Positions 4,385 through 19,877 are shown, counted from the stretch's first letter. The stretch is 64,000 nucleotides of DNA from Alphaproteobacteria bacterium (GCA_039980135.1 JBDXCV010000001.1:74914-138913), one strand, 5' to 3'. Notes: generated by a model from the letters alone, not told the origin. Numbers and translations are program-made.

Positions 4385-4393
4385 GCCAACAGC

Positions 4394-5215
4394 CTAGTCC
4401 CATTTTCGCCCCGGCATGTGGTTGAAAAGGCTCGTCGACATGCCGCCGTCGATAACCAGTTCGGATGAGGTCACATAGGACGCGGCATCTGACAGCAGAT
4501 AGAGAATGCCCTCGGCGATGTCGTCGGGCTGGCCGACCCGGCCGAGCGGCGTGACATCCGCGCGCGCCTGTTTGACGGCCGGGTCGCGCATGTAGGCGGT
4601 GAGCGGCGTTTCCGTGTGTCCGGGGCAGACCGCGTTGACCCGGATATTGTGCTTCGCCCATTCCAGCCCGAATTGTTTGGACAGCATGATCACGCCGGCC
4701 TTGGTCGTGCTGTAGGCGCCGGCCAGGTTGTAGGGCTGAAGCCCGCCGGTCGAGGACAGGTTCACCACCGCGCCCGGGGTTTTTTTCCCGATCCACCAGC
4801 GGCCGGCAGCCTGGGTCATCAGGAAGGTGCCCGTCAGCCCCACATCGACGACCTTGCTCCAGTCGTCGTGGGACAGATCTTCCAACGGTCCCGGTCCCAT
4901 GCGGATGGCGCTGTTCACCAGAGCGTCGAGCCGACCGAAGGTTTCGACCGCGAAGGCAACGCCGGAAGCGCAGGAATCTGGGTCGGCGACGTCGATGGGA
5001 GCGAACGCCGCCGCATCGCCCATTTCGTCGGCAATGACGCCGCCGAGCGCCGCGTCCACATCTCCGATGACGACCCGACCGCCGTCGCGCACAAACCGGC
5101 GCGCGGTCTCCGCACCGATCCCGCTCGCGCCGCCGGTGATGATGCAGACCCTGTCTTCGAAACGTGACATTTGTTTCTCCCGCGTTTTCCCTGAAACGAG
5201 TGTAGCCACAAACAT
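4394..5215 (-). CDS. SDR family NAD(P)-dependent oxidoreductase
   Basis: N-terminal ITGGASGIGAETAR Rossmann motif, NSA, and catalytic YSTTKAGV (YxxxK). 273 aa. Confidence 0.85.
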   Translation of the reverse strand: MFVATLVSGKTREKQMSRFEDRVCIITGGASGIGAETARRFVRDGGRVVIGDVDAALGGVIADEMGDAAAFAPIDVADPDSCASGVAFAVETFGRLDALVNSAIRMGPGPLEDLSHDDWSKVVDVGLTGTFLMTQAAGRWWIGKKTPGAVVNLSSTGGLQPYNLAGAYSTTKAGVIMLSKQFGLEWAKHNIRVNAVCPGHTETPLTAYMRDPAVKQARADVTPLGRVGQPDDIAEGILYLLSDAASYVTSSELVIDGGMSTSLFNHMPGRKWD

Positions 5216-5288
5216 CGTTGGGTTGCAGGGAAGGGCGAACCATCACGCGCGACTTGATTTCGCGACGAACTCGGCTCCCAATACGACC

Positions 5289-5627
5289 ATGACAGGGAAA
5301 CTGGACCTCGAGAGATGGCGCGCGACGCTCCTGGGCGAACGCGCCGCACTGAGGGAGTCGAGCGCCGCGACATCCGAGAACCGCACACCGGTGACGTTGG
5401 ATCAGCAGAGCGTCGGCCGGCTCTCGCGCATGGATGCCATCCAGGTGCAGGCGATGGCGCAGGCCGAGGAAGACCGGCGTCAGCATCGGTTGCGCCTCAT
5501 CTCGGCGGCGTTGTCCCGGCTCGACGAGGGCGAGTATGGCTACTGCATGACTTGCGGGAACGACATCCCGGAGAAGCGCCTGGAAGTCGATCCGGCGGCC
5601 GCGCAATGCGTCGATTGCGCGAAATGA
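5289..5627 (+). CDS. DksA/TraR family C4-type zinc-finger protein
   Basis: C-terminal CMTCGNDIPEKRLEVDPAAAQCVDC (CxxC-N17-CxxC) and a coiled N-terminal region, about 113 aa from the ATG at 5289. The listed longer ORF from 4827 is an upstream read-through. Confidence 0.75.
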   Translation: MTGKLDLERWRATLLGERAALRESSAATSENRTPVTLDQQSVGRLSRMDAIQVQAMAQAEEDRRQHRLRLISAALSRLDEGEYGYCMTCGNDIPEKRLEVDPAAAQCVDCAK

Positions 5628-5658
5628 TCTGAACGTTAAGTTATCTGGGAAGAGCGAT

Positions 5659-7113
5659 ATGCGGCGTGTGCGAAACGTGAAGGTCCTGGCGACCCTCGGC
5701 CCGGCGAGTTCATCGAAGAAGATGATCCGCGCGCTGTTTCTGGCCGGCGCGGACGCGTTCCGGCTGAATATGAGCCACGGGTCCCACGACGACGTCCGTG
5801 AAATGCATGCGCGTATCCGTGCGGTCGAAGCAGAGCTCGGGCGCCCGATCTGTATCCTTGTCGACCTCCAGGGACCGAAACTGCGGATCGGCAAGGTCGC
5901 CGCGGGTACGGTTTTGAAGGATGGTGCGGCCTTCCGGCTCGAACTCGAACATGGGCCCGGCGATGCTGCCGGTGCGGAGTTGCCCCACAGGGAAATTTTT
6001 CAGGCGATCGGTGCCGGCGCCAGCCTGCTCATCGACGACGGCAAGATTCGGCTTGAGGTGGTCGAGGCGGGGAAGGATTTTGCGGATACGAAGGTGATCG
6101 TCGGCGGGCCGCTCTCGTCCAACAAGGGCGTGAACGTGCCGGACGTGACCCTGCCTGTCCCGGCCTTGTCGCCCAAGGATCGCCGCGATCTCGATTTTGC
6201 CATGACTCTCGACGTGGACTGGGTGGCGTTGTCCTTCGTGCAACGGCCCGACGACGTGGCCGAAACGAAGAAGATCGTCGCCGGGCGCGCGGCGGTAATG
6301 GCAAAAATTGAAAAACCGCGCGCACTCGATTTCCTGGATGAGATAATCGAGGTCGCGGACGGCATCATGGTCGCGCGCGGGGATTTGGGTGTGGAGCTGC
6401 CCATCGAAAAGGTGCCGGGTATCCAGAAGGCGATCACGCGGGCCGGGCGGCGCGCCGGCAAGCCGGTGGTCGTCGCGACCCAGATGCTGGAGTCGATGAT
6501 CGAGGCACCGGTGCCGACCCGTGCGGAAGTCTCGGACGTGGCGAATGCCGTTTTCGAGGGCGCGGATGCGGTGATGCTGTCGGGCGAGTCCGCCGCCGGC
6601 GCACATCCGCTCGAGGCGGTAGAGATGATGGACCGGGTCGCCCGGTCGGTCGAGGGTGACCCGCAGTTCCGGGATGAGATCGACGCGGGACGGATGGCAC
6701 CCGAGACGACTTCGGCGGATGCGATCACCCTGGCGGCGCGGCAGGTCGCCGAAACCCTCAAGGCGGCTGCCATCGTTTGCTATACGGCGTCGGGCTCCAC
6801 TGGGCTGCGCGCCTCGCGCGAACGGCCGGAAGTACCGATTCTCGTGCTGACCCCGGTGGTTCAGACCGCGCGGCGTCTGGCGCTTGCCTGGGGGGTGCAT
6901 TGTGTGGAGACCGAGGACACAACCAGCTTCCTGGACATGGTGGTCCGGGCCAGCCGGGTGGCGGAGACGGAAGAGTTCGCCAAAACGGGTGACAGGTTGG
7001 TCATCACTGCGGGCGTGCCGTTCGGGACTCCGGGCCGCACAAATACCCTGCGGATCGCGACCGTGGGAACGCAAGCGCGCCGCCCGCGCGCAAAGCGAAA
7101 AATGCCCGCGTAG
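5659..7113 (+). CDS. pyk: pyruvate kinase
   Basis: N-terminus KVLATLGPASSSKKMIRALFLAGADAFRLNMSHGSHDD, and MVARGDLGVE active-site motif. 484 aa. Confidence 0.95.
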   Translation: MRRVRNVKVLATLGPASSSKKMIRALFLAGADAFRLNMSHGSHDDVREMHARIRAVEAELGRPICILVDLQGPKLRIGKVAAGTVLKDGAAFRLELEHGPGDAAGAELPHREIFQAIGAGASLLIDDGKIRLEVVEAGKDFADTKVIVGGPLSSNKGVNVPDVTLPVPALSPKDRRDLDFAMTLDVDWVALSFVQRPDDVAETKKIVAGRAAVMAKIEKPRALDFLDEIIEVADGIMVARGDLGVELPIEKVPGIQKAITRAGRRAGKPVVVATQMLESMIEAPVPTRAEVSDVANAVFEGADAVMLSGESAAGAHPLEAVEMMDRVARSVEGDPQFRDEIDAGRMAPETTSADAITLAARQVAETLKAAAIVCYTASGSTGLRASRERPEVPILVLTPVVQTARRLALAWGVHCVETEDTTSFLDMVVRASRVAETEEFAKTGDRLVITAGVPFGTPGRTNTLRIATVGTQARRPRAKRKMPA

Positions 7114-7241
7114 ATCATGCGTCATTTCGCCCCCAGAATAATCCGGGCGAGCGGTTTACATGCCCCGAGTCCTTTGGCTTATAGTTCGATAATTCTCGTA
7201 TCGGAAAACAGGCGGCAAAGATCGCCGGAGGGGACGCAACG

Positions 7242-9071
7242 ATGGGGAAATCGGCAGACAGTCGAACCCGTAATCAGGGGCTGTTGAACTGGGTCGATGA
7301 GGTCGCCGCGCTGACGAAGCCGGCCGACATCTATTGGTGCGACGGGTCGAAGGAAGAATATGACCGCCTGTCCGCGCAGATGGTCGAGTCCGGCATGCTG
7401 ATTCCGCTGAACCAGGAATTACGGCCCGGCTGCTTCCTGGCCCGTTCCGACCCCAGCGATGTGGCGCGGGTCGAGGACCGCACCTTCGTCTGCTGGGACA
7501 ATGAGGAAGATGCCGGACCCAACAATAACTGGGTCGCACCCGACGAGATGCGCGAGACCCTGAACGGCTTATTCGACGGCTGCATGCGCGGCCGAACCAT
7601 GTATGTGATCCCCTTCAGCATGGGGCCGCTCGGCTCCCACATTGCCCATATCGGGGTGCAACTTACAGACTCACCTTACGTCGCCGCGAGCATGCGCATC
7701 ATGACCCGGATGGGGCAGGGCGCACTTGACGTGCTGGGTGATGACGGCGACTTCGTGCCGTGCCTGCATACCGTCGGCGCGCCGCTCGCGGATGGCGAGG
7801 CGGATGTCGTCTGGCCCTGCAACAAGACCAAATACATCGTGCATTTCCCGCAGGATCATTCGATCTGGTCCTATGGCAGCGGCTATGGCGGCAATGCGCT
7901 GCTCGGCAAGAAGTGCTTCTCGCTGCGCATTGCGTCGATCATGGCCAGGGAAGAAGGCTGGCTCGCCGAGCATATGCTCATCCTCGGGCTGGAATCGCCG
8001 AAGGGTGAGAAGACATATGTCGCGGCCGCATTCCCGAGTGCGTGCGGCAAGACGAACCTCGCCATGCTCATTCCGCCTGCCGGTTACGAGGGCTGGAAAG
8101 TCAGTACCGTCGGTGACGATATCGCCTGGATCAAACCTGGCGAGGATGGCCGGCTGCATGCGATCAATCCCGAAGCCGGGTATTTCGGTGTGGTGCCGGG
8201 AACGTCGACGAAGACGAACCCGAATGCCATGACGATGATCGAGCGCGACACGATCTTCACCAATGTGGCGCTGATGGACAATGGCGACGTCTGGTGGGAA
8301 GGCAAGGACGGCGAGGTGCCCGATCATCTGATCGACTGGCGCGGCGACGACTGGACCCCGGACAGTGACACACCTGCCGCCCATCCGAACGCGCGCTTCA
8401 CCGTCGCGTCGGTCAATTGCCCGAGCCTCGACCCGGCCTGGGACGATCCGAACGGTGTGCCGATCGATGCGTTTGTCTTCGGCGGCCGACTGAGCTCAAC
8501 CTTTCCGTTGGTTTACGAATCCACGGACTGGCAGCACGGTGTTTACATGGCCGCGACCATGGGATCGGAAGCGACCGCAGCAGCGGACAATCAGGCAGCA
8601 ATTCGCCGCGACCCGATGGCGATGCTGCCCTTCTGCGGGTACAACATGGCCGATTACTGGAGCCATTGGTTGGGCTTCGCGGAGAAGGGGCTCAAGCTGC
8701 CCAAGATTTTCAGGGTGAACTGGTTCCGCAAGGATGCGGCGGGCAACTTCATCTGGCCGGGCTTCGGCGAGAACATGCGTGTACTCGAATGGGTCTGCGA
8801 CCGGGTGCACGACAATCGCGACGCCATCGAAGGCCCGCTCGGCAATATGCCGCGCTACAGCGATCTCAACTGGACCGGCCTCGAATTCACGGCCGATGCG
8901 TTCAGCGGGATCATGGATCTCGCGCGCGACGCGGGCAGCAACGAGGCTCAAGCCCAGAAGGAACTGTTCGACAGCTTTGCCGGTCGTCTGCCGGCGGCCA
9001 TGGAGGCTGAGCGTCAGGCGTTGCTCGATAGCATGGAGAAAGCGCCGGAGATCTGGCGCGTCGCCAGCTAG
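7242..9071 (+). CDS. pckG: phosphoenolpyruvate carboxykinase (GTP)
   Basis: 609 aa with the P-loop/kinase-1a motif [13 protein letters not shown] and other GTP-PEPCK motifs. GGAGGGGA RBS just upstream. Confidence 0.95.
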
Positions 9072-9097
9072 AATCAGCCCCGGGACCAGATTTGAAA

Positions 9098-9124
9098 GGG
9101 CCGCTCATCGCAGCGGCCTTTTTC
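9098..9124 (+). terminator. rho-independent terminator of pckG (GGCCGC-tcatcgca-GCGGCC + TTTTTC)
   Basis: Perfect 6-bp GC stem, 8-nt loop and T-run, 27 nt after the pckG stop. Also lies between convergent genes. Confidence 0.7.
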
Positions 9125-9504
9125 TATTTGTCGATGACGCTTACATGGGCGGCGACGATGCGCCATCCCTCCGGCATGCGCGCCCAGCTCTGGCTCTGTC
9201 GCCCCACCTTGTCGCCCATGCTTTCGCGATGAAACTCCAGGTTCGCGGTACCGAAATCACGGCCGTATGTGGTTACGATCACCGGCCCGGTGGTGCGGGC
9301 CACGTCGGCCGGGTCACGTGCGGCACGGAACCCGGCGATCTGGTCATGGCCGTAGAGGTTTTCGCCGATGCCGTAGCGCAGGGTCAGATCATGGGTCCAG
9401 AACAGCTCGTTCAGCACGTCGACATCGTTCGTCGTCAGCGCCGCTTCATAGCGGTCATGGGCTGCCGTTACCTCGGCGAGGACTTCGGGGATGTTGATTT
9501 CCAT
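9124..9504 (-). CDS. NTF2-like/SnoaL-like domain protein (DUF3225/AtzH-like fold)
   Basis: 126 aa. N-terminal EVTAAHDRYEAALTTNDVDVLNELFW pattern is typical of NTF2-like small enzymes. No catalytic assignment possible. Confidence 0.4.
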   Translation of the reverse strand: MEINIPEVLAEVTAAHDRYEAALTTNDVDVLNELFWTHDLTLRYGIGENLYGHDQIAGFRAARDPADVARTTGPVIVTTYGRDFGTANLEFHRESMGDKVGRQSQSWARMPEGWRIVAAHVSVIDK

Positions 9505-9631
9505 TTAAATGCTCCAGTCAGACAAGCCATGTTCCCATGCGCAGCCCTTCGGTCCAACCCCCGGGTTCGGCCGCCGGGTCCAGTCCCCGGATCAAACCCG
9601 CCACCGGCCGGGGCGGGTGCCGGGCCAATCT

Positions 9632-10534
9632 ATGCTAGCTTCCGGCGGGAGACGAAATTTGACCAGGCTCGAGATTCACCACCGCACAACCTACCGGTAC
9701 CGGGAGCCCATCCAGTTCGGCACGCACCGCATGATGCTTCGCCCGCGCGAGAGCCGCAATCTGCGTCTCACCGCGCATAATCTGGATGTGTCACCCGGCG
9801 CAACCATTGCCTGGGCGCATGATGTTTTCGGCAATTCCGTTGCGACGGCCACATTTCAGGAACCGTCGGATACGCTCGTCATAGATAGTTTTGCGGCACT
9901 CACACTCGACGTCGACCAGTGGCCCGTTTTCGATATCGCCGCCTCGGCCGCCAATTACCCTTTCCTGCTGACAGAAGACGAGATGACCGACCTCGGGGCA
10001 TTGCGGCTGCAAGCCTATCTCGATTCCGACGGGAGCCTGCGGGCATGGGCCCAGGGTTTCGTTTCCGGGAATCCGACCGATACGCTGTCGCTCCTCAAGG
10101 ATTTGTCGGACGGTGTCGCGGCGCGGGTCACCTATGAAGTTCGCGAAACCGATGATGCCCAGTCGCCGAGGCAGACGCTCAGCCTTGGCCAGGGGTCATG
10201 CCGGGATTTCGCGGTTCTGTTTGTCGATGCCGTACGCAGTTTCGGTTTCGGTGCGCGGATTGTATCGGGATATCTGTACGATCCGGACAATGATGCCGTG
10301 GGGTCCCAGGGGGCGGGGTCGACCCACGCGTGGGCCGAAGTCTACGTGCCCGGTGCGGGCTGGATCGTGTTCGATCCGACCAACCGAAGTGTCGGCGGAT
10401 TCAATCTGATTCCGGTCGCCGTGGCCCGCCATATCCGTCAGACGATGCCCGTATCGGGAAGCTTCATCGGTGACGGAAACGCATTCGAGGGAATGGATGT
10501 GAAAGTCGAGGTCGCGTCGTCGGAACAGTCCTGA
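9632..10534 (+). CDS. transglutaminase-like family protein (N-terminal Bact_transglu_N domain + transglutaminase core)
   Basis: RLEIHHRTTYRYREP N-terminal signature, and core GSCRDFAVLFVDAVRSFGFGARIVSGY with a Cys-containing transglutaminase-like motif. Start is ATG 9632 or TTG 9659. Confidence 0.75.
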   Translation: MLASGGRRNLTRLEIHHRTTYRYREPIQFGTHRMMLRPRESRNLRLTAHNLDVSPGATIAWAHDVFGNSVATATFQEPSDTLVIDSFAALTLDVDQWPVFDIAASAANYPFLLTEDEMTDLGALRLQAYLDSDGSLRAWAQGFVSGNPTDTLSLLKDLSDGVAARVTYEVRETDDAQSPRQTLSLGQGSCRDFAVLFVDAVRSFGFGARIVSGYLYDPDNDAVGSQGAGSTHAWAEVYVPGAGWIVFDPTNRSVGGFNLIPVAVARHIRQTMPVSGSFIGDGNAFEGMDVKVEVASSEQS

Positions 10535-10567
10535 ATACCCGTCGCGCCCGTTTACGTTTTCGAACGT

Positions 10568-12253
10568 CTAGCCTTTTGCCTTCGCCCCGCCATCGCGCAG
10601 GCTCACCGTGCGGTTGAACACGAGTGCGCCGGGGGCAGATCCCGCATCGGGCGCGAAATAGCCAAGCCGCTCGAACTGGACCACCGCATCGTCCTTCGCG
10701 AGGGTCGGCTCCAGGTAGCATTCGGTGCGCAGGTCGAGTGAGGACGGGTTGAGGTCTTCGAGCCAGTCGCGCTCCTTGCCCGGTTCCTCGGCGGTGAACA
10801 GATGATCGTAAAGGCGGACTTCTGCGGTCTCGGCGTGGGCCGCCGAGACCCAATGGATCGTCCCGCGGACCTTGCGGCCGTCGGGTGATTCGCCGCCACG
10901 GCTTTCCGGGTCATAGGTGCAGCGCAGCTCAGTCACATTGCCGACGGCGTCCTTGATTACATCCGTGCAAGTCACGAAATATGCGAAGCGGAGCCGCACC
11001 TCCCGCCCGATGGTCAGGCGGCGGAATTTCTTGGGTGCGTCGTCCATATAATCGTCACGCTCGACCCAGAGTTCGCGCCCGAACGGAATTTTGCGCGTGC
11101 CGGCACTTTCGTCGGTCGGGTTGTTCACCCCGTCCAGTTCTTCTGTCTCGCCCTCGGGATAGTTCTCGATCACCAGCTTGACCGGATCGAGTACGCCCAT
11201 TCGGCGCGGGGCGGTCTGATTCAGATGCTCGCGGATCGTGTTCTCGAGATACGACATCTCGACCAGTCCGTCGGCCTTGGTAATGCCCAGGCGGGTGATG
11301 AAATCGCGGATCGCCTCGGGGGGCACACCGCGGCGGCGCAGCCCGGCCACGGTGGGCATGCGCGGGTCGTCCCAGCCGGCGACATGGCCTTCCTCCACGA
11401 GGTGGATCAGGCGACGTTTCGACAGCACCGTGTGACCGAGGTTGAGGCGTCCGAATTCATACTGGCGGGGCCGGGCGGGCACCGGGAGGTTTTCGATGAA
11501 CCAGTCATACAGAGGGCGGTGATCCTCGAACTCCAGCGTACACAGGGAATGAGTCACATGTTCGATGGCGTCCGACTGGCCGTGGGCGAAATCATAGGTC
11601 GGGTAGATGCGCCACGCATCGCCCGTGCGCGGATGATCGGCGCGAAGTATCCGATACAATACGGGGTCGCGCAGGTTGATATTGCCTGAGGCCATGTCGA
11701 TCTTGGCGCGGAGCACCCGTGCACCATCCTCGAACTCGCCGGCGCGCATGCGCGCGAACAGATCGAGGCTTTCTGCGGCCGGCCTCTCGCGGTAGGGGCT
11801 CGGTCGGCCGGGTTCGGTCAGGGTGCCGCGATACTCGCGGATTTCATCGGCCGTCAGATCGTCCACATAGGCGAGGCCGCCTTCGATCAGATGCTGCGCC
11901 CAGGCGTAGAGTTGCTCGAAATTATCTGACGCGTGGAAGAGATTCTCGCCCCAGTCGAATCCGAGCCAGCGCACGTCGTCCTGTATGGCGCGAATATAGG
12001 CGGCGTCCTCGCGGGCGGGGTTGGTATCGTCGAAGCGCAGGTTGCAGGTGCCGCCGAACTCCGCCGCGACGCCGAAGTTCAGGCAGATCGACTTGGCGTG
12101 TCCGATATGAAGGTAGCCGTTCGGTTCCGGCGGGAAGCGGGTGACGATCGTATCGGTCTGGCCGGATTCGAGATCGGCACGAATCCGGTCGCGGATGAAA
12201 TCGCGCGGCGCCGTTTCGGTGTCGTGGGAATCGGGGTTGTCAGAATCTGTCAT
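10568..12253 (-). CDS. glnS: glutamine--tRNA ligase
   Basis: Strong colinearity with GlnRS: [24 protein letters not shown] (HIGH), VLSKRRL (KMSKS-like), C-terminal anticodon-binding beta-barrel region. 561 aa. Confidence 0.9.
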
Positions 12254-12335
12254 GAAATATCACGGCCCTGGGATGATGGCTCTGTCTGCCAGAAAACTGG
12301 CTGTGCGCCAAGTCGGGTGCCGCAATAAACGCAAA

Positions 12336-12360
12336 CGGCCCGGCATTGGCTGCCGGGCCG
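12336..12360 (-). terminator. 10-bp perfect hairpin (CGGCCCGGCA-ttggc-TGCCGGGCCG) downstream of the VOC dioxygenase gene
   Basis: Seen directly. On the minus strand it is followed by UUUGCGUUUAUU, so it is a candidate intrinsic terminator. It sits between the stop of the 12383..13369 gene and the glnS start. Confidence 0.5.
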
Positions 12361-12382
12361 CACATCACAAGGCAGAAACCGC

Positions 12383-13369
12383 CTAAGGGCTGACGTGATG
12401 GATGAATTCCATGGGAGCAGGCTCGCCCCACTGGGACCTGAGCCCTTCATCGGCGGGGATGTAGCGGGTTTCGTAGTCCGCATTGAGCGTGTCCGAATCC
12501 GCCCAATGTTCGTGCACCCGACCCCACGGGTCCTTCCAATAGTCGTAAATCTGGCTGCCGAGAACGTGACGGCCAATGCCCCAGACATGGTCGTAATTAC
12601 CGGCATCACGCAGATGTTCGTGACCCATCATCACGTCGTCGAAATCGGGCACCTCGAACGAGAGGTGGTTCAGCCCGGCATTCTCGTTGCCGATGTAGAG
12701 AAACACATGATGGTCGACGAATTGCTTGCCGCCGTCGATACGGTTGAAGCTGGCAATTATCTTGTCTTTGTCATCCTCGACATAGACCTCGTCCGAAGCG
12801 ATGAGGCCGATATGGTGGCGCACCCAGGCCGTGCATTCGTGCATCTTCGGTGTGCCGATCACGCCATGGCCGATCCGCATGACCGTGGCCGGGCCGGGGG
12901 CCTTGCGCCAAAGTTCGTTGGCGCGCTTGTACTTGTCGATATTGCCGAGGTTGTAGGATTGACGCTCGACGGGCATCTCGTCGACGGCTTCAATACCGTG
13001 GACGACTTCGATGGTGTAGCCGTTGGGTTCTGTGAGGCGGACCCTTTTGCCGCCGCCGGGCTCGTCGATATTCTCGACATCTGACGCGCCTTTGGCTTCC
13101 GCAGCGAGTTTGTGCAGATCGTCTTCGCTAACAGCACGGAAGGCGAGGCTGATGAAACCGGGGTCGCCCTTTTCCGTCACGTGAATATGGTGGCTGGCAC
13201 CGGTGCCGCGCATGAACAGTTTGTCGTTGGTGCGCTCGACCGTGATCATACCGAAATTGGTCAGGAACTCTTCCTGGACGTCCAGATCGGGTGACCTGAT
13301 GCGGCCCCATTCGAGATCGGCGACCTTGATAATGGGTTCAGTCATGGGGATTTCCTCCTGCCCTGCCAT
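12383..13369 (-). CDS. two-domain VOC family protein (extradiol ring-cleavage dioxygenase / glyoxalase-like)
   Basis: 328 aa with two tandem VOC modules and His/Glu metal-ligand pattern (HHIHVTEKG... HHVFLYIG... E at C-term), typical of type I extradiol dioxygenases. Confidence 0.6.
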   Translation of the reverse strand: MAGQEEIPMTEPIIKVADLEWGRIRSPDLDVQEEFLTNFGMITVERTNDKLFMRGTGASHHIHVTEKGDPGFISLAFRAVSEDDLHKLAAEAKGASDVENIDEPGGGKRVRLTEPNGYTIEVVHGIEAVDEMPVERQSYNLGNIDKYKRANELWRKAPGPATVMRIGHGVIGTPKMHECTAWVRHHIGLIASDEVYVEDDKDKIIASFNRIDGGKQFVDHHVFLYIGNENAGLNHLSFEVPDFDDVMMGHEHLRDAGNYDHVWGIGRHVLGSQIYDYWKDPWGRVHEHWADSDTLNADYETRYIPADEGLRSQWGEPAPMEFIHHVSP

Positions 13370-13454
13370 TCGCGGCGGTGTTGCTGGATACTCTAGACGG
13401 AACAGGCTTGGCTCGGAAAGCCTCTAACCCGGTGTCACGCGCTCGGTATTTGGC

Positions 13455-13472
13455 CCATACGCAACCGTATGG
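13455..13472. promoter_or_regulatory. palindromic operator CCATACG-caac-CGTATGG (putative TetR binding site) followed by TATTAT -10-like hexamer
   Basis: Perfect 7-bp inverted repeat in the divergent intergenic region between the VOC gene and the TetR gene. A related second copy is at 13497..13514. Confidence 0.5.
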
Positions 13473-13496
13473 TATTATGCTGGTGTGCGGGTGTCA

Positions 13497-13514
13497 ATAC
13501 GCGTGCGTATGGGG
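13497..13514. promoter_or_regulatory. second related near-palindrome CAATACGC-gt-GCGTATGG (putative TetR operator 2)
   Basis: Shares ATACG...CGTATGG arms with the site at 13455, 36 bp upstream of the tetR start codon. Confidence 0.45.
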
Positions 13515-13549
13515 CCGAGCCTGGTCTGGCAGATATTGTAGGCGGACGA

Positions 13550-14134
13550 ATGACGAGCAAACGAGAACAGTCCCAGGATCGAGACTCCTGGCTCGCGGAA
13601 GCGCTTGAAATGCTGCGAGAGCGCGGGGTCGATCATGTGAAGGTCGAGCCTCTCGCGCAGCGCCTCGGGGTGACCAAGGGGAGCTTTTACTGGCACTTCA
13701 AGGATCGTCAGGACCTGCTGAACTCGCTTCCGGAATTCTGGGCGCGTCGCCAGACGGATCCGGTACTTGCCCATGTGCAGGCCACGTCGGGAGGTCCGAT
13801 CGAAAAGATGCGGGCCATTCTCGAATTCATCGCGCACGAGGACCCCGACCAATACGACAATGCCATGCGTGCCTGGGCTCAGTTCGATCCGGACGTCGCG
13901 GCCGCGGTGGCGGCGATTGACGAACGCCGGATGGCAACGGCGCGGTCATTGTTCGAGGAGGCGGGACTCAGCTCGTCCGATGCGGCCTTTAGGGCCCGGC
14001 TCTGGTATTTCTATGATGTGGGCGAGCATGTGACCCGCGATACGCCGGACACGGTCGAGGAGCGGCTGGAACGCGCGTCCCACCGGCTGAAGCTGCTGAC
14101 GTCGGATCTAAAGTCGGATCTGGCGTCGGATTAG
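13550..14134 (+). CDS. TetR/AcrR family transcriptional regulator
   Basis: HTH signature VKVEPLAQRLGVTKGSFYWHFKDRQDLL. About 195 aa from the ATG at 13550. Confidence 0.85.
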   Translation: MTSKREQSQDRDSWLAEALEMLRERGVDHVKVEPLAQRLGVTKGSFYWHFKDRQDLLNSLPEFWARRQTDPVLAHVQATSGGPIEKMRAILEFIAHEDPDQYDNAMRAWAQFDPDVAAAVAAIDERRMATARSLFEEAGLSSSDAAFRARLWYFYDVGEHVTRDTPDTVEERLERASHRLKLLTSDLKSDLASD

Positions 14135-15330
14135 CTGGCGATCAGCATGTCGGCGGCTTGCGGCTCGACCCCGAACACGCCAAGCATGCAATCGAGCAAC
14201 TCGCGGTGCTGGTCGCTCGTAATCTGCGGGCCCGTGCGTCCGAGCTGGTCCTGCAGCAGATTGATCGCGTGGGAGTTGCTGCTCAGGCAGGCTGCCAGTT
14301 CGACATAGTGCGTGTCGGCCTGGCCGAGGAAATCCTTGAACGGTGCCGGATTGCTTTCCTCGATAAACTGCCGATAGCTGTTTTCATAAGCCTCCAGCAT
14401 ATTGACGATGCTGAGATAATTTTCGCGAAACAGGGCGCGGAGTTGCTTGAGGTCCCGCTTGATCAGGCCCTGAACCTCCGTGCGCAGACCGCCGTAATCG
14501 ACCGGCAGCGCGGTCTTCGCGTCGCCGATCCAGGCGAAGAGGCGGCGTAGTGCCGGCTCCACTTCCGAAAACTGCACCTGATAATAGCAAATCGCTTTCC
14601 AGGCGAAGAATAGCTCCGGCGCGCGCTCGGGCGGCATTTCCATGCCGTAGACGAAATCCTCAATGCCGTCGATGTCGCGCGCTTCCCAGATTTTCTTCAG
14701 GAATTTGGAGATGTTCTCTTCGATCCTGATCTTGAGGTCCGGGTCGGTGTCGACGTCGTCGTCTTCCATGCCCAGCGCCTTGCGGACCAGCGCGTCGATT
14801 TTTTCGCGGATGGGCTTCTGGATGCGGGTCCATTCCTCGATGCTGATGTTGAAATAGGCGGGGTTCAACTGGTCCTCGATGCCCTGCTGTTGCGCCTTAC
14901 ATTTCAGCAGGAACGGGTCGAGGGTGGGCAACTGGTCGATCATTTCCATGATCTGAATGTCCCAACGGCCGTCTTCAGCCTTGTCCTCGCGATTCGTATC
15001 GAGACCACATTTGTGCAGCAGTTTCTCGGCCCGGCGGGGGTCGCTTACCAGAATGGAGTCGCCACCCTCATACATATTCTGATGGTTGTAGGGAAAATAG
15101 ACGAGGGTCTCGACACCGTGCTGGCGTTTGCCGCGAATGGTGACGGTATCGACGACCTTGAAAATGATCGAATCATTCAGATAGCGGTTGCGAAACAACG
15201 GCCCGAACGGGTCATCGTCGGCGATTGTCGCCGCGATGCCGGCGATGTCCTTCGTGGTTTCGAAGCAATTCAGGGTCGAGGAACGACCCACATCGATAGC
15301 GCGGGAAAGCTGTTGCCGGTTCATGGACAT
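14131..15330 (-). CDS. hypothetical protein, compositionally atypical (Lys/Glu/Asp/Ile/Phe/Tyr-rich), no recognisable motifs
   Basis: 399-aa uninterrupted ORF with clear coding periodicity. GC is visibly lower (about 55%) than neighbours (about 65%). Converges on tetR with a 4-nt overlap and is divergent from the SCNase-like operon. Confidence 0.5.
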   Translation of the reverse strand: MSMNRQQLSRAIDVGRSSTLNCFETTKDIAGIAATIADDDPFGPLFRNRYLNDSIIFKVVDTVTIRGKRQHGVETLVYFPYNHQNMYEGGDSILVSDPRRAEKLLHKCGLDTNREDKAEDGRWDIQIMEMIDQLPTLDPFLLKCKAQQQGIEDQLNPAYFNISIEEWTRIQKPIREKIDALVRKALGMEDDDVDTDPDLKIRIEENISKFLKKIWEARDIDGIEDFVYGMEMPPERAPELFFAWKAICYYQVQFSEVEPALRRLFAWIGDAKTALPVDYGGLRTEVQGLIKRDLKQLRALFRENYLSIVNMLEAYENSYRQFIEESNPAPFKDFLGQADTHYVELAACLSSNSHAINLLQDQLGRTGPQITSDQHRELLDCMLGVFGVEPQAADMLIAS

Positions 15331-15498
15331 CGAGACGAGACTCCGGGAGTTCTGATCCGTCCCATTCTGAATTGGAAATATTGAAGAAATCTAAAGGGAT
15401 AGAGCGAAACCCGGTATTTATGTGTGTCGGTCGACGAAGTCCTTGCCTTGTCCGGGCTGGACCCTGAAAATGGCGTCCGCACCACGCGGGGGGAGAGA

Positions 15499-15825
15499 AT
15501 GCGCGGTCCACAGGATTACGGAGGGATGCCGGCAGGCCCGGTCGATCCCGAAAAGCACGAGCATGTCCCGACCCATTGGGAAAAGACGGTCGATGCGATG
15601 ATGATGCTGCTGTTCGATCAGCGCCGTCGCCTGGCCCGCGTCGATGAATCGCGGCGCATGCAGGAAGCGCTTGGCGAGGATTATCACAAATATCCTTATT
15701 ACGAGCGTTGGCTGCAGGCGATCTCCTGGTTGATGCTGGAGAAGGGCGTCTACACCCAGGAGGAACTCGAGGCGAAGCAGGCCGAGGTCCGTGCGCGTCT
15801 GGAGGCGGAAGGCCATGGATCCTAG
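15499..15825 (+). CDS. nitrile hydratase beta-subunit N-terminal-half homologue (thiocyanate hydrolase beta-like, scnB-like)
   Basis: MRGPQDYGGMPAGPV ... WEKTVDAMM ... YYERWL ... LEKGV matches the NHase-beta N-terminal half (MNGxHDxGG..GPV, WEKT, YYEHWL, LEKG). Strong GGGGGAGAG RBS before the ATG at 15499. The listed ORF begins at GTG 15424. Confidence 0.7.
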   Translation: MRGPQDYGGMPAGPVDPEKHEHVPTHWEKTVDAMMMLLFDQRRRLARVDESRRMQEALGEDYHKYPYYERWLQAISWLMLEKGVYTQEELEAKQAEVRARLEAEGHGS

Positions 15826-16099
15826 GTTCCAGCCGGGCGACAAGGTCCAGGTGTTGCATCGCGACCAGCCGGGCCATGTACGAACGCCGATGTATGTGCG
15901 GGGCAAATCCGGCGTGATCGAACGCATCGTCGGTTCATTTCCCAACCCCGAACTGTTGGCGGTCGGCCATTCGGGGCTGCCCTACAAGATGCTCTACCGT
16001 GTGAACTTCCGGCAGGGTGAGCTGTGGGAAGACTATGACGGGGCACCCGACGACACGCTTGAGATCGAAATTTACGAACATTGGCTGGCGCCAGTTTAG
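15815..16099 (+). CDS. nitrile hydratase beta-subunit C-terminal-half homologue (thiocyanate hydrolase alpha-like, scnA-like)
   Basis: FQPGDKVQVL ... MYVRGKSGVIERIVG ... YRVNFRQGELWEDYDG ... LEIEIYEHWLAPV parallels the NHase-beta C-terminal barrel domain. The ATG at 15815 overlaps the upstream stop (ATGGATCCTAG). Confidence 0.7.
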   Translation: MDPRFQPGDKVQVLHRDQPGHVRTPMYVRGKSGVIERIVGSFPNPELLAVGHSGLPYKMLYRVNFRQGELWEDYDGAPDDTLEIEIYEHWLAPV

Positions 16100-16124
16100 G
16101 CGCGCGCGGAAAGCGGTGACAATT

Positions 16125-16799
16125 ATGAGCGAAACCCACGATCACTCGCATGATCATTCCCACGACCACCCGACGCATACCCATGACGGCAAACCGATCC
16201 AGGAGGATCCGTTGCCGTCGCTCGAGGCGCAGATTCTCGAGGCCGCGGTGCGCGAACTCCTGATCGAAAAGGGGGTCATCTCGTCGGATGATGTGCGCCG
16301 CGCAATCGACCAGGTCGAAAGCCGCAATCCGGCGCTCGGCGCCAAGATCGTGGCCCGTGCCTGGGACGATTCCGAGTTCAAGTTGCTGCTCATGTCTGAC
16401 AGTGACGAGGCGCTGAAGGATTTCGGCATCAACATGAGCCCCATGGAGCTGTGTGTCGTCGAAAATACCGAGGACGTCCACAACATGGTCGTTTGCACCC
16501 TGTGTTCCTGCTATCCGCGCCCGGTGCTCGGCATTCCGCCGGCCTGGTACAAGCGCCGCGACTATCGCGCGCGTGCGGTCCGTGAGCCGCGCGCGGTCCT
16601 GCGCGAGTTCGGCACGGAGATTCCTGAGAAAAAACAAGTGCGTGTACATGACAGCAACGCCGATTTGCGCTATCTGGTACTGCCGCAGCGCCCGGAAGGC
16701 ACCGACGGCTGGGATCAGGACAGGCTTGCGCGCCTGGTAACGCGAGACGCCATGATCGGGGTCAGCGATGCGCTGGCTCCGGAGGACCTTGAGGGTTGA
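16125..16799 (+). CDS. nitrile hydratase alpha-subunit family protein (thiocyanate hydrolase gamma-like, scnC-like) with His/Asp-rich N-terminus
   Basis: Metal-binding claw VCTLCSCYPRP (16494..16520; Arg where Co-NHases have Trp, as in SCNase gamma-Arg136). His-rich N-terminal tract HDHSHDHSHDHPTHTHD. About 224 aa from the ATG at 16125. Confidence 0.8.
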   Translation: MSETHDHSHDHSHDHPTHTHDGKPIQEDPLPSLEAQILEAAVRELLIEKGVISSDDVRRAIDQVESRNPALGAKIVARAWDDSEFKLLLMSDSDEALKDFGINMSPMELCVVENTEDVHNMVVCTLCSCYPRPVLGIPPAWYKRRDYRARAVREPRAVLREFGTEIPEKKQVRVHDSNADLRYLVLPQRPEGTDGWDQDRLARLVTRDAMIGVSDALAPEDLEG

Positions 16800-16803
16800 T
16801 TTC

Positions 16804-16995
16804 ATGAAGATCGGACAACGCGCGTTTTGGCTGATTGTTGCCGGTTTGGTGGCGGTGAATTACGCCTATCTCCATGACATTATCTGGCAGTCCCACAGGG
16901 GCCTGGTTGTCATGGGGTTGAAGAGTTACGGGCTGGCCATTCTGGGCACGGTTATGATTCTGGCGGGTGTCGTAATGGCCAGGTCTGGCGACTAG
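16804..16995 (+). CDS. small membrane protein (64 aa, two predicted TM helices), translationally coupled to the gamma-like subunit
   Basis: ATG 4 nt after the scnC-like stop. Two hydrophobic stretches, FWLIVAGLVAVNYAYL and YGLAILGTVMILAGVVMA. Function unknown. Confidence 0.45.
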   Translation: MKIGQRAFWLIVAGLVAVNYAYLHDIIWQSHRGLVVMGLKSYGLAILGTVMILAGVVMARSGD

Positions 16996-17081
16996 TGCGC
17001 CGCATCGAATAGGCCGGAAATGAACCCGGCGGGGTAAACAGGACAGGTTCGCCGCTGGACGCGGCGTGGGGGAGTTCACGA

Positions 17082-18524
17082 GTGATCGCAGCACGAAAGA
17101 TGCTGGGCAGACTGTTCCCGGAACAGCGCGAACTGATCGTGCGCGCCGGCGGTCGTGTGCGCTATCTGCGGGTCGGCCGGCATGTCCAGGTCGGTGTGGT
17201 CACGCTGGTGGCGACAGCGTTTGTCTGGACGGCCTTCTCGACGGCCAAGTTTGCGTCGCACAACAGCATCGTATCGGGTCAGAAAACCCAGATTTCAGAG
17301 CTTCGCGACCATAATGCACGGATTGCGCAAGAGCTCGAGCGGGTGCGTGATCGCGTGGATATTCAGCGACGCTCATTGACCGCAACCCAACAAACGACGG
17401 TCGATCTCGAAACATCAAACCGGTCCCTGAAGGATGAGATCGGCGCGCTGCAGGGCGCCCTCGATGAGCAAAAGCTGCGGGGCGACGCGCTCGCGCTTTC
17501 GTATCTGAGCGAGGTCGAATCAAAGGCGCGGATCGCGGCCGAAGCGGAAAGCCTCACGGTCTCGCGCGAAGAGATGCGGCAGCGGCTCGTCGACCGGGGA
17601 CAAAAACTTGCAGCGGTCGAGGAGTCACGCCTGGCGCTGGAGACACAACTCGCAGAGTCGCGCGGTGCTCTTGCCGCGCTCAAGTCGGATGTTGTGGCGA
17701 TCGAAATTGCGCGCGCGGATCTCCAGGCGAACCTCGATGCGAGCGACCAGAAGCTGCGCAGCACAGTGGATGAGAAGCTTGCGGTCGATAACCAGCGACA
17801 GGCACTTGGTGAACAGGTCGCGGATTTGTCGGCGCGGCTTGTATCACTGGAGACCGCGCAGGTCGGCATCGTTTCCCGGCTGGGCGAGACTGCCGACCAG
17901 GGCGGCGAAGCCCTGCGAAAAACCCTGGACCTGGCCGGACTTGACGTCGACCGTCTGCTGGACCGGATGGCGCGTGCGGCGGGCGAAGGTCGCGGCGTGG
18001 GCGGGCCTTTCCTCGCGATCGAGAACAGTCCGGGCGGCGGTCTTGCGCAACAGATTGCGACAGTCGAGCGGCGGATTGACGACCTGCACAGCCTGCAGTC
18101 CCTGATGGAACACCTGCCGCTGGCCGCACCGCTCACCGAATATCGCGTGACGAGCAATTTTGGCCGTCGCCTCGACCCATTCACCAAACGCCTGGCGTTT
18201 CATTCCGGCATGGACATGGCCAGTCGCCGCAAGGCGCCGGTTCGCGTGACATCACCGGGGGTCGTGACCTTCGTGGGCTGGAAGGGCGGCTTCGGCAAAA
18301 TGGTCGAGGTCGATCACGGGCTGGGCGTACGCACGCGTTATGGTCACCTGTCGGCGATTTTCGTGAAACGCGGCCAGGAACTGGATTTCCGGGAAAAAGT
18401 GGGCCTTATCGGCAGTACGGGTCGGAGTTCGGGCGAACATTTGCACTATGAAATCCTGGTCGATGGACGGCAGAATGATCCGTCGAATTTCATCAAGGCA
18501 GGACAGTATGTTTTCAAAAACTGA
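17082..18524 (+). CDS. M23 family peptidoglycan DD-metalloendopeptidase with long N-terminal coiled-coil
   Basis: N-terminal TM then an extended Glu/Arg/Leu-rich coiled coil. C-terminal LytM domain HSGMDMA ... DHGLGVRTRYGHL ... GEHLHYE. Start is GTG 17082 or ATG 17100. Confidence 0.85.
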   Translation: MIAARKMLGRLFPEQRELIVRAGGRVRYLRVGRHVQVGVVTLVATAFVWTAFSTAKFASHNSIVSGQKTQISELRDHNARIAQELERVRDRVDIQRRSLTATQQTTVDLETSNRSLKDEIGALQGALDEQKLRGDALALSYLSEVESKARIAAEAESLTVSREEMRQRLVDRGQKLAAVEESRLALETQLAESRGALAALKSDVVAIEIARADLQANLDASDQKLRSTVDEKLAVDNQRQALGEQVADLSARLVSLETAQVGIVSRLGETADQGGEALRKTLDLAGLDVDRLLDRMARAAGEGRGVGGPFLAIENSPGGGLAQQIATVERRIDDLHSLQSLMEHLPLAAPLTEYRVTSNFGRRLDPFTKRLAFHSGMDMASRRKAPVRVTSPGVVTFVGWKGGFGKMVEVDHGLGVRTRYGHLSAIFVKRGQELDFREKVGLIGSTGRSSGEHLHYEILVDGRQNDPSNFIKAGQYVFKN

Positions 18525-18900
18525 CCGACAGGGTTTGGGCAACGGTGTGCCGTCGATTATCAGCGCAGACTTGAGCGTGTCTGGTGACCTTTCCGGCGAT
18601 GGCGTGATGCAGATCGATGGAACGGTCAATGGTGATATCCGCTGCGCGGAGGTGACGATCGGGCAGGGTGCCCAGGTATATGGTCAGCTTGAGTGCGACA
18701 CCGTGCATGTACATGGCACGGTCACCGGCGAAATTCGCGCCCGCGCCGTGAGCCTCTCGTCGACCGCGCGGGTCATTGGCGATATCCAGCATGAAGAGCT
18801 TTCGATCGAGGCGGGCGCGTATATGGAAGGCCAGCTTCTGCGCCGCGACGCGCAACAGTCACGGTTGAATCTGGTCGTCGGCGAGCGCGAGAAAGCCTAG
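18508..18900 (+). CDS. bactofilin (polymer-forming cytoskeletal protein, CcmA/BacA family)
   Basis: 131 aa with repeated beta-helix rungs (VSGDLSGDGVMQIDGTVNGDIRCAEVTIGQGAQVYGQLECDTVHVHGTVTGEI). Start overlaps the 3' end of the M23 peptidase gene by 17 nt. Confidence 0.85.
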   Translation: MFSKTDRQGLGNGVPSIISADLSVSGDLSGDGVMQIDGTVNGDIRCAEVTIGQGAQVYGQLECDTVHVHGTVTGEIRARAVSLSSTARVIGDIQHEELSIEAGAYMEGQLLRRDAQQSRLNLVVGEREKA

Positions 18901-19877
18901 CCGATACAGGCGTTGAAAAGCGCCGCGTCCACGTTGCCGCCGGATAGAATGGCGACGATCGTCCGACCCTCCGTTTCGATGTTGTTCGACAATATGGCAG
19001 CCAGCGCCACGGCACCCCCGGGTTCCAGCACGAGTTTGAGGGTGCGCCACGCGTAGGCCATGGCCGCGCGCACGTCGTCGTCGTCTACCGCGATGCCCGT
19101 TACACCGTGCGCGTGCATGGCGGCGAAGGTCAGGTCACCCGTGCTTGGTGACAGCAGCGCGTCGCAGATGGAGGCCGCGCCGGTCTCGTTCGAAAGACGC
19201 TGGCCGGCGGCGAGGGAGCGCATGGCATCGTCGAACCCGGCCGGTTCGACCGCTGTGACCCGGGATGCGGGACAGCGATCCGCCAGCGCGATGGCGATCC
19301 CGGACGTCAGCCCGCCGCCGCCGCAACAGACCAGCACTTCATCGGGCGGGGCTTGCAATGCCGCGCATTGCGCGGCGATCTCGAGTCCCACGCTGCCCTG
19401 CCCCTCGATGGTCCAGGGGTGATCGAAGGGGGGAACCAGGGTCGCACCGAACTCATCGGCGATGGCCGCGGCGATATCCTCGCGGGATTCGGTCTGGCGA
19501 TCATATGTGACCACCTCCGCACCATAACCACGCGTGTTGTCGTTCTTGGCGCGGGGCGCGTCGGCGGGCATCACGATCGTCGCGGGAACGCCGAAGATTT
19601 CCGCCGCCGCGGCAACACCCTGGGCATGGTTGCCTGACGAATAGGCGACGACCCCGTTCGTGCGGACATCGGACGGAATCTGGGACAGGAAATTATAGGC
19701 GCCGCGAAACTTGAACGACCCGGTCCGCTGCAGGGTTTCCGCCTTCAGCAGCACGCGTCCGTTGGTGCGGGCATTGAGGGCGGGGTTCTCGATCAGCGGG
19801 GTGCGGACCGCGACGCGGGCCAGTCTTTCTGCCGCCGCCTCGATGCCGGCAAGGGTGGGCCGGGCCTGCGTCGTCAT
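18897..19877 (-). CDS. PLP-dependent threonine/serine dehydratase (fold type II)
   Basis: ETLQRTGSFKFRGAYN lysine motif and glycine-rich GGGGL loop. 326 aa, so the catabolic type without regulatory domains. Confidence 0.8.
   Translation of the reverse strand: MTTQARPTLAGIEAAAERLARVAVRTPLIENPALNARTNGRVLLKAETLQRTGSFKFRGAYNFLSQIPSDVRTNGVVAYSSGNHAQGVAAAAEIFGVPATIVMPADAPRAKNDNTRGYGAEVVTYDRQTESREDIAAAIADEFGATLVPPFDHPWTIEGQGSVGLEIAAQCAALQAPPDEVLVCCGGGGLTSGIAIALADRCPASRVTAVEPAGFDDAMRSLAAGQRLSNETGAASICDALLSPSTGDLTFAAMHAHGVTGIAVDDDDVRAAMAYAWRTLKLVLEPGGAVALAAILSNNIETEGRTIVAILSGGNVDAALFNACIG

Follow-up and report, generated by a model that had tools for sequence, protein, structure and literature searches.

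Activators accompany almost all nitrile hydratase gene clusters (PMC7193024). The nitrile hydratase ScNHase of Streptomyces canus CGMCC 13662 is encoded in the order anhD-anhE-anhA, where AnhD and AnhE represent the N- and C-terminal parts of the beta subunit; the genome has no activator gene, and cobalt is bound and inserted activator-free (PMC7329996). Its substrates include acetamiprid, thiacloprid and benzonitrile, and AnhD serves as a metal and subunit-swapping chaperone (PMC7329996; PMC13243292). Genuine scn operons, which encode thiocyanate hydrolase (SCNase), adjoin genes for cobalt uptake, ABC transporters, cyanase and sulfur oxidation (PMC5328954) and also include an activator gene (PMC7193024). 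Here, we analysed an operon at positions 15499-16995 (plus strand) of a 64,000-nucleotide stretch of alphaproteobacterial DNA. This whole stretch is referred to as the window, and coordinates are counted from its first letter. Four closely packed genes encode the two halves of a nitrile hydratase beta subunit (betaN and betaC), the alpha subunit and a protein of 63 amino acids. The region is a four-gene operon for a cobalt-type enzyme of the nitrile hydratase superfamily made of three polypeptides. It represents a further case of the already known three-subunit, activator-less cobalt nitrile hydratase architecture (PMC7329996); to this the operon adds a pocket specific to its clade and a small, private membrane protein.

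Three enzyme subunits encoded by closely packed genes

The betaN gene (15499..15825, plus strand) encodes 108 amino acids corresponding to the N-terminal half of nitrile hydratase beta (PF21006, E = 9e-19), and betaC (15815..16099, plus strand) the SH3-like C-terminal half (94 amino acids; PF02211, E = 1e-20). The metal-binding alpha subunit (16125..16799, plus strand) has 224 amino acids (PF02979, E = 8e-80). With E-values of 1e-19 to 1e-80 and dozens of loci in which the genes are conserved, these matches cannot be due to chance, and all three enzyme proteins are intact and conserved. A Shine-Dalgarno-like run, GGGGAGAG, is visible in front of the ATG at 15499. The public gene call on an identical contig also uses this ATG, so the upstream, in-frame GTG at 15424 is not the betaN start; a 108-residue betaN gene is likewise called in relatives. 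The contig in question, JBDWYK010000154.1 of NCBI assembly GCA_039982435.1 (an Alphaproteobacteria metagenome-assembled genome, MAG), is 100% identical to window positions 6804-19301. The first-pass annotation of this DNA, made from the sequence alone, had already described the overlapping betaN (15499..15825) and betaC (15815..16099) genes and an alpha subunit with the motif VCTLCSCYPRP. These coordinates and motifs were confirmed, as was the beta(N)-beta(C)-alpha order by the PF21006, PF02211 and PF02979 matches. Its range of 15424-16995 does hold the genes and its three subunits were right, but it begins at the GTG instead of the actual start codon and left the fourth gene (16804-16995) undescribed. 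An Rfam scan of the window gave no match, and a scan for a promoter or terminator of the operon yielded nothing above shuffled expectation.

When compared with the beta subunit model TIGR03888, betaN covers positions 1-99 of 226 (57.8 bits) and betaC positions 137-226 (66.4 bits). Jointly, the two open reading frames (ORFs) make up a complete beta subunit except for a middle linker of about 35 residues (positions 100-136). The motifs DESRR (Ser51, Arg52, Arg53) and PYYERW (Tyr68, Trp71) are present in betaN, and betaC carries GHVRTPMYVRGK. The metal claw of alpha, VCTLCSCYPRP (16491..16523, plus strand), was read directly from the sequence and comprises Cys124, Thr125, Cys127, Ser128, Cys129, Tyr130 and Arg132, the last encoded at 16518-16520. 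The protein begins with a His/Asp-rich tail, MSETHDHSHDHSHDHPTHTHD (16125..16187, plus strand), which is presumed to capture cobalt.

In the PDB, the proteins matched alpha and beta chains of cobalt nitrile hydratases, and these alignments included the claw as well as the Arg and Tyr motifs of beta. For alpha the best matches were alpha chains of cobalt nitrile hydratases, and SCNase gamma was matched with an E-value of 8e-58. Arg52 and Tyr68 of betaN and the YVRGK motif of betaC align with the beta subunits of Pseudomonas putida and Pseudonocardia thermophila. The second arginine, within YVRGK, would correspond to beta Arg157 of the P. thermophila enzyme (PtNHase), whose beta sequence was checked only by residue numbers of the literature. 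The alpha subunit narrowly passes the nitrile hydratase alpha model TIGR01323 (252.6 bits, cut-off 249.85).

Taken together, these features point to a cobalt enzyme of the nitrile hydratase family, of the three-subunit activator-less type, that probably acts on an organic nitrile (probability roughly 0.6). Following the established chemistry of nitrile hydratase and SCNase, alpha would bind a non-corrin Co(III) via Cys124, Cys127, Cys129 and backbone amides, with Cys127 oxidised to the sulfinate and Cys129 to the sulfenate. Arg52 of betaN and the arginine of YVRGK in betaC would hydrogen-bond the oxidised cysteines, and Tyr68 of betaN would aid catalysis. The C-N triple bond of the substrate would bind the metal and then be hydrated. 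The part of metal chaperone, which AnhD is reported to play in S. canus, may fall to the His-rich alpha tail and/or betaN, and maturation would proceed without a separate activator. No activator gene (TIGR03889 type) was found among the window ORFs checked or next to the operon in clade relatives. According to public gene calls for the flanks, activator, cobalt-transporter and sulfur genes are missing from about 8 kb upstream to 2.5 kb downstream of the operon.

A conserved pocket in a conserved neighbourhood

The phylogenetic position of the enzyme was analysed with a neighbour-joining tree of 217 alpha cores (100 bootstraps). The query falls into an alphaproteobacterial clade that has a bootstrap value of 95% and comprises 21 of the sampled alphas. 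In the six clade members that were aligned, the betaN pocket motif RLARVDESRRMQE (VDESRR) does not vary, and the alpha arginine is retained in the clade alphas of both the homolog set and the tree alignment. The positions expected to line the pocket are Arg132 of alpha and Ser51, Arg53 and Val48 of betaN, the classical residues being Trp, Phe, Phe and Leu, respectively. By these residue identities the pocket would be cationic and polar. For this reason, a small polar or anionic cyano compound appears to be a more likely substrate than a bulky hydrophobic nitrile.

The clade is strongly syntenic. Upstream of the operon lie genes for GlnRS, a VOC-family dioxygenase-like protein and TetR, sometimes followed by a flavin reductase or a gene of about 395 codons, and then betaN-betaC-alpha. 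M23 peptidase, bactofilin, PALP enzyme, HAD hydrolase, SLT and DHDPS genes follow downstream of alpha. The window itself has GlnRS, the VOC-family dioxygenase-like gene, TetR, a gene for 399 amino acids, M23 peptidase, bactofilin, PALP enzyme, HAD hydrolase and SLT as neighbours. This synteny reflects vertical inheritance of the operon in a core-genome region; the operon is not part of a catabolic island. The composition profile likewise revealed no island, with a GC content of 0.55-0.65 throughout that is slightly lower over the 399-residue gene. Amidase and cobalt-transporter genes were not found next to the operon in the query clade. Clustering of neighbouring genes in the fetched related loci, which relied on crude ORF calling with antisense artefacts in high-GC DNA, gave no partner conserved beyond the three subunits.

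The fourth gene (16804..16995, plus strand) begins 4 nucleotides past the alpha stop codon and encodes 63 amino acids with two predicted hydrophobic helices. In NCBI it is annotated as hypothetical protein ABJ215_10730 of an Alphaproteobacteria MAG. Searches of Pfam, NCBIfam, PADLOC and PHROG assigned the protein to no family. L092, the clade member that diverges most (alpha 60% identical), has a small ORF in the corresponding place, and the two products share 61% identity (E = 6e-15). In a database of 5.8 billion proteins only three clusters were found, the exact match and two others (P0407 and P0408), and all three adjoin the alpha gene of this clade, directly downstream. The gene is present in the window MAG, L092, L093 and L094 and absent from L001, L002, L089 and L090, with a degenerate remnant retained in L089. 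The ORF is thus a real gene that was lost in several clade members, and the predicted membrane protein is a clade-specific accessory.

The clade might also form a separate isofunctional family whose substrate is neither thiocyanate nor a typical organic nitrile, which we consider unlikely. Candidate substrates would be small anionic C-N compounds, among them cyano-carboxylates (for example beta-cyanoalanine). Such a substrate would be preferred by no characterised nitrile hydratase or SCNase, and the clade would hold a self-maturing cobalt enzyme encoded by a core gene instead of a catabolic accessory, a picture that we regard as doubtful. The 63-residue membrane protein would then act in uptake or localisation. 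The invariant VDESRR of betaN, Arg132 and the His-rich tail of alpha and the private 63-residue protein could, rather tentatively, be taken as marks of such a family. The pocket formed by betaN Val48, Ser51 and Arg53 and alpha Arg132 is conserved in the clade and differs from SCNase (Arg90), from most relatives with Arg at the Arg132 position (Arg-type; Leu) and from classical enzymes (Phe, Trp). Vertical inheritance in a conserved core-genome neighbourhood also speaks for this idea, as does a private fourth gene found only directly 3' of alpha in this clade. However, the proposal is drawn purely from residue identities, and the operon has no linked transporter or downstream enzyme that would hint at a pathway. 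Moreover, the fourth gene is missing from the four members named above and hence dispensable. The clade offers a compact, probably activator-independent enzyme whose pocket is unusually polar. Biocatalysis with nitrile hydratases could thereby be extended to more substrates, and the enzyme could help to show how cobalt inserts without a chaperone. If the enzyme is an ordinary nitrile hydratase, the finding would be routine.

Two further features of the upstream region were noticed. At 12383-14134 a divergent pair consists of the VOC-family extradiol-dioxygenase-like gene (328 amino acids, minus strand) and the TetR regulator gene (plus strand). This pair adjoins the operon in nearly all clade members fetched, L092 being an exception. 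The 399-residue gene (14131-15330, minus strand) is transcribed in the direction away from betaN. Homologs of 376-399 amino acids were found at the same position in L001, L091, L093 and L094, and fragments in L002 and L003. In L090 this position is taken by a flavin reductase gene and in L092 by a YDMC-domain gene, and L089 has no gene there. The 399-residue protein had no match in Pfam, NCBIfam, PADLOC or PHROG, and PDB matches were non-significant (E above 0.3). Its single-sequence AlphaFold2 model had a mean predicted local distance difference test (pLDDT) score of 38.5 and was unusable.

Partial resemblance to thiocyanate hydrolase

The first-pass annotation had read the enzyme as SCNase-like and not as a canonical nitrile hydratase. 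A genuine minimal SCNase would convert SCN- to COS and NH3 and thereby provide a heterotroph with nitrogen or sulfur from thiocyanate; we hold this to be distinctly unlikely. The comparison was carried out with the three SCNase chains of Thiobacillus thioparus, which were verified residue by residue against PDB 2DD4. Apart from the shared three-piece architecture, identities amount to 49% for alpha and gamma (ScnC), 34% for betaN and ScnB and 36% for betaC and ScnA, with betaN aligned to ScnB residues 45-147 and betaC to ScnA residues 36-123. The claw, VCTLCSCYPRP(V/I)LG, is essentially identical to that of gamma. Arg132 aligns exactly with gamma Arg136 (BLASTP; gamma verified against PDB 2dd4_C), as the annotation had proposed, and Trp occupies this position in classical cobalt nitrile hydratases (PDB alignments). 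The parallel it drew between the His/Asp-rich alpha N-terminus and SCNase gamma was also found, a similar tail being present in gamma (MSADHDHDHDHDHDHK). In addition, the RR pair of betaN corresponds to Arg91 and Arg92 of ScnB, and among the sequences sampled the nearest neighbours of gamma by distance include the query.

Several of these features are not specific for SCNase. Of the 80 best related loci, taken from one-genome-per-species contigs and supplemented by a few more from metagenome look-ups, 78 have Arg or Lys at the Arg132 position. Since these relatives come from very diverse organisms, Arg132 is not diagnostic and does not discriminate in favour of SCNase. Arg was found at this position in 119 of the 120 closest database homologs, and among 150 representatives of 50%-identity clusters 58 had Arg and 20 had Trp. 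Most of these 120 homologs also have the His-rich alpha tail, those without it being mainly shorter or truncated gene calls, and His-rich N-termini are common across these alphas, some of the Trp type included. The arginine and the split beta are what is seen most often in this radiation, which is very large and for the most part uncharacterised, and for this reason neither feature is a marker of SCNase. For annotation this means that Arg-for-Trp or a split beta should not be taken as evidence of thiocyanate degradation: both are commonest in a large, environmentally widespread three-subunit group, for which two or three characterised members were found.

Unusual claw sequences were also observed in these searches. 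P0023, which holds the sole Trp among the 120 closest matches, and P0092, which has two claw regions, are apparent assembly chimeras with an Arg-type N-terminal and a Trp-type C-terminal part (VRVWDSTAE...). Many of the cluster representatives (P0125-P0129, P0132, P0144, P0163, P0253 and others) are natural fusions of betaN-alpha (about 320-335 amino acids), betaC-alpha (about 316-328) or full beta-alpha (450-530). The last type includes eukaryotic proteins, for example from Chromera velia. Many different residues follow CSCYP in the fusion representatives (R, K, T, S, L, V, A or I).

The SCNase gamma model TIGR03887 separates the window protein from a genuine ScnC. Its cut-off is 291.45 bits; window alpha scored 217.2 and the ScnC control 400.6. 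On TIGR01323 the ScnC control reached 200. A classical Trp-type alpha scored 303 (TIGR01323) and 212 (TIGR03887), and other Arg-type three-subunit alphas 248-268 and 187-236, respectively. From these scores, the Arg-type three-subunit alphas as a group would be intermediate between the two models, with a lean to nitrile hydratase.

As reportedly described by Yamanaka et al. in 2013 in J Biosci Bioeng, gamma Arg136 and beta Arg90 jointly control thiocyanate selectivity. In window betaN, Ser51 stands in place of ScnB Arg90 (DESRR, compared with EERRR in ScnB), and in the P. thermophila nitrile hydratase the equivalent is Phe51. Ser is also found in the six aligned clade members, and Leu in 53 of 80 sequences of another alignment and in most Arg-type relatives. 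Lys occurs in a small subgroup of the Arg-type three-subunit enzymes, and among the sequences aligned only ScnB has Arg. The Lys subgroup (TEEKRRGVE) was seen on plasmids of Streptomyces sp. NBC_01176 (L086, 4230-8002), Rhizobium leguminosarum (L087, pRL3b4, 3422-5902) and Azospirillum brasilense (L088). Cobalt-transporter genes (NiCoT or CbtA/CbtB) are linked to those of the subgroup, in two cases together with an aquaporin-family channel, and the Rhizobium and Azospirillum loci have the order betaC-alpha-betaN. Judged by the charge of its pocket and its linkage to cobalt transporters, the subgroup looks nearer to SCNase than the window clade does.

Further differences were found outside the pocket. 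According to pairwise and multiple alignments, the window proteins have neither the N-terminal extensions of ScnB (44 residues) and ScnA (35 residues) nor, in alpha, the 12-residue gamma insertion before the claw and the 25-residue gamma C-terminal tail. The earlier remark that betaN and betaC (108 and 94 residues) are shorter than ScnB and ScnA (157 and 126 residues) and lack the N-terminal extension is borne out by these alignments. The cobalt-uptake, ABC-transporter, cyanase and sulfur-oxidation genes of scn operons (PMC5328954) are not near the operon.

The trees do not support a sister relationship with SCNase. In the alpha tree the deeper nodes, including SCNase placement and monophyly of the Trp type, have bootstrap values of 0-13%. 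A concatenated betaN+betaC+alpha tree (77 taxa, 200 bootstraps) pairs SCNase with the P. thermophila nitrile hydratase; these are two long branches (53.5%), and the pairing is uninformative. In the concatenated data the query is separated from either of them by about 1.0 substitutions per site, and its nearest relatives, at about 0.6 substitutions per site, are other uncharacterised three-subunit enzymes. Thus, the query clade is about equally distant from SCNase and from one classical nitrile hydratase, and query alpha is not demonstrably sister to SCNase. A phylogeny of alpha, which had been suggested as a check, does place the query outside the Trp-type cobalt nitrile hydratases, but with deep nodes at 0-13% this is weak evidence. 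Altogether, the resemblance to SCNase appears to be partial only. The reading as SCNase did not hold up, given the failed TIGR03887 cut-off, the narrow pass of TIGR01323, Ser51 and the missing extensions and context genes; the hedge that the enzyme could be an intermediate or novel member was nearer to the evidence.

Hydration of an organic nitrile to the amide would therefore be the most likely reaction, with thiocyanate hydrolysis as a minority possibility. Several observations weigh against the organic nitrile. The sole Arg-type member for which activity was found is SCNase, and the comparison with AnhA and ToyJ, which may or may not carry Arg after CSCYP, drew on published descriptions. 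The margin over the TIGR01323 cut-off was below 3 bits. Nitrile-assimilation operons would commonly have an amidase gene nearby, and this one does not. The likenesses of Arg132 and the His-rich tail to SCNase gamma are real, the overall distance to SCNase equals that to the one classical nitrile hydratase included, and the deep phylogeny has bootstrap values of only 0-13%.

Age of the split beta and comparison with described enzymes

The betaN and betaC genes overlap by 11 nucleotides, ATGGATCCTAG (15815..15825, plus strand), from the betaC start to the betaN stop as read from the sequence. Within the query clade the length and frame of this overlap are constant and its bases differ (GTGCAGCCTAA, ATGGAGCCTAG, GTGGATCGTAG, ATGGACGCTAG); more distant relatives have 4-nucleotide overlaps (ATGA/GTGA). 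In all 73 related loci where both halves were located, betaN and betaC are separate ORFs. These split-beta loci span Alpha-, Beta- and Gammaproteobacteria, Binatia, Dehalococcoidia, Nitrospinota, Latescibacterota, Actinomycetota and Methylomirabilota. The split persists in relatives whose alpha is as little as 50% identical; together with gene order and overlapping start and stop codons it is conserved across phyla. The beta split is therefore ancient, and the layout is widespread and previously described. Since overlap length and frame are kept while bases vary and 73 of 73 loci are split, a recent frameshift is excluded, and translational coupling fits; the overlap is likely a translational-coupling junction. 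The check for a recent frameshift suggested by the first-pass annotation thus revealed none, and its description of a minimal nitrile hydratase beta that was cleanly split is in line with the absent linker and the two intact halves.

That an ordinary two-subunit nitrile hydratase might recently have been frameshifted or become a pseudogene, with an inactive enzyme as the result, is suggested only by the superficial look of two overlapping ORFs compared with the single beta gene of classical operons, and this idea is refuted by the 73-locus ORF survey, other phyla included, and by the junction comparison, where the reading-frame logic is kept and nucleotides vary; moreover, the beta linker (TIGR03888 positions 100-136) is cleanly absent instead of frame-shifted, all catalytic motifs are intact and a characterised enzyme sharing the split is active (PMC7329996), leaving this explanation virtually no credit.

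Among described enzymes, the classical cobalt nitrile hydratases of Pseudonocardia thermophila (1IRE), Bacillus/Geobacillus (2DPP) and Pseudomonas putida (3QXE) were the best PDB matches, with about 55-60% alpha identity over the core. They share with the window enzyme identical metal ligands, the Thr/Tyr cobalt signature and the beta Arg and Tyr motifs. In contrast to the window, they have a single beta of about 220-230 amino acids, whereas the window beta ORFs fall below the TIGR03888 cut-off (152.2 bits). They also have Trp after CSCYP and Phe at both position 51 and position 53 of beta; a dedicated activator is encoded downstream, and their TIGR01323 scores are about 300 compared with 252.6.

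The T. thioparus SCNase resembles the window enzyme in having three subunits with the beta split at about the same place, the VCTLCSCYPRP claw, Arg at gamma position 136 and a His-rich gamma N-terminus. It differs from the window enzyme, which has Ser for ScnB Arg90, a TIGR03887 score of 217 instead of 401, none of the extensions, gamma insertion or gamma tail, and no activator, cobalt-uptake or sulfur genes close by.

The toyJKL genes of Streptomyces rimosus are presumably arranged with alpha first (toyJ-toyK-toyL) inside a deazapurine biosynthetic cluster, and such a cluster is not present at the window operon. ToyJKL, like the window enzyme, consists of one alpha and two small beta-derived subunits, and its alpha is able to self-mature (cited in PMC7329996). 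Neither a homolog search seeded with P0186, an Arg-type alpha of 195 amino acids, nor two cluster look-ups brought up any named protein of Streptomyces or Monosiga; the S. canus enzyme was compared by its published description. The fourth membrane-protein gene is not among the genes reported for ScNHase, and organism and neighbourhood differ from those of the window. Window alpha is longer than AnhA (224 amino acids and about 25 kDa, compared with 21.3 kDa) owing to its His-rich tail. In line with the window operon, ScNHase has the betaN-betaC-alpha order and is of the cobalt type; its genome has no activator gene, and next to the window operon none is present. The key residues Glu56 of AnhD and His21 of AnhE (PMC13243292) carry the same numbers as Glu56 of betaN and His21 of betaC, a match by number only, and these shared residue numbers suggest that AnhD and AnhE may be colinear with the two window beta subunits.

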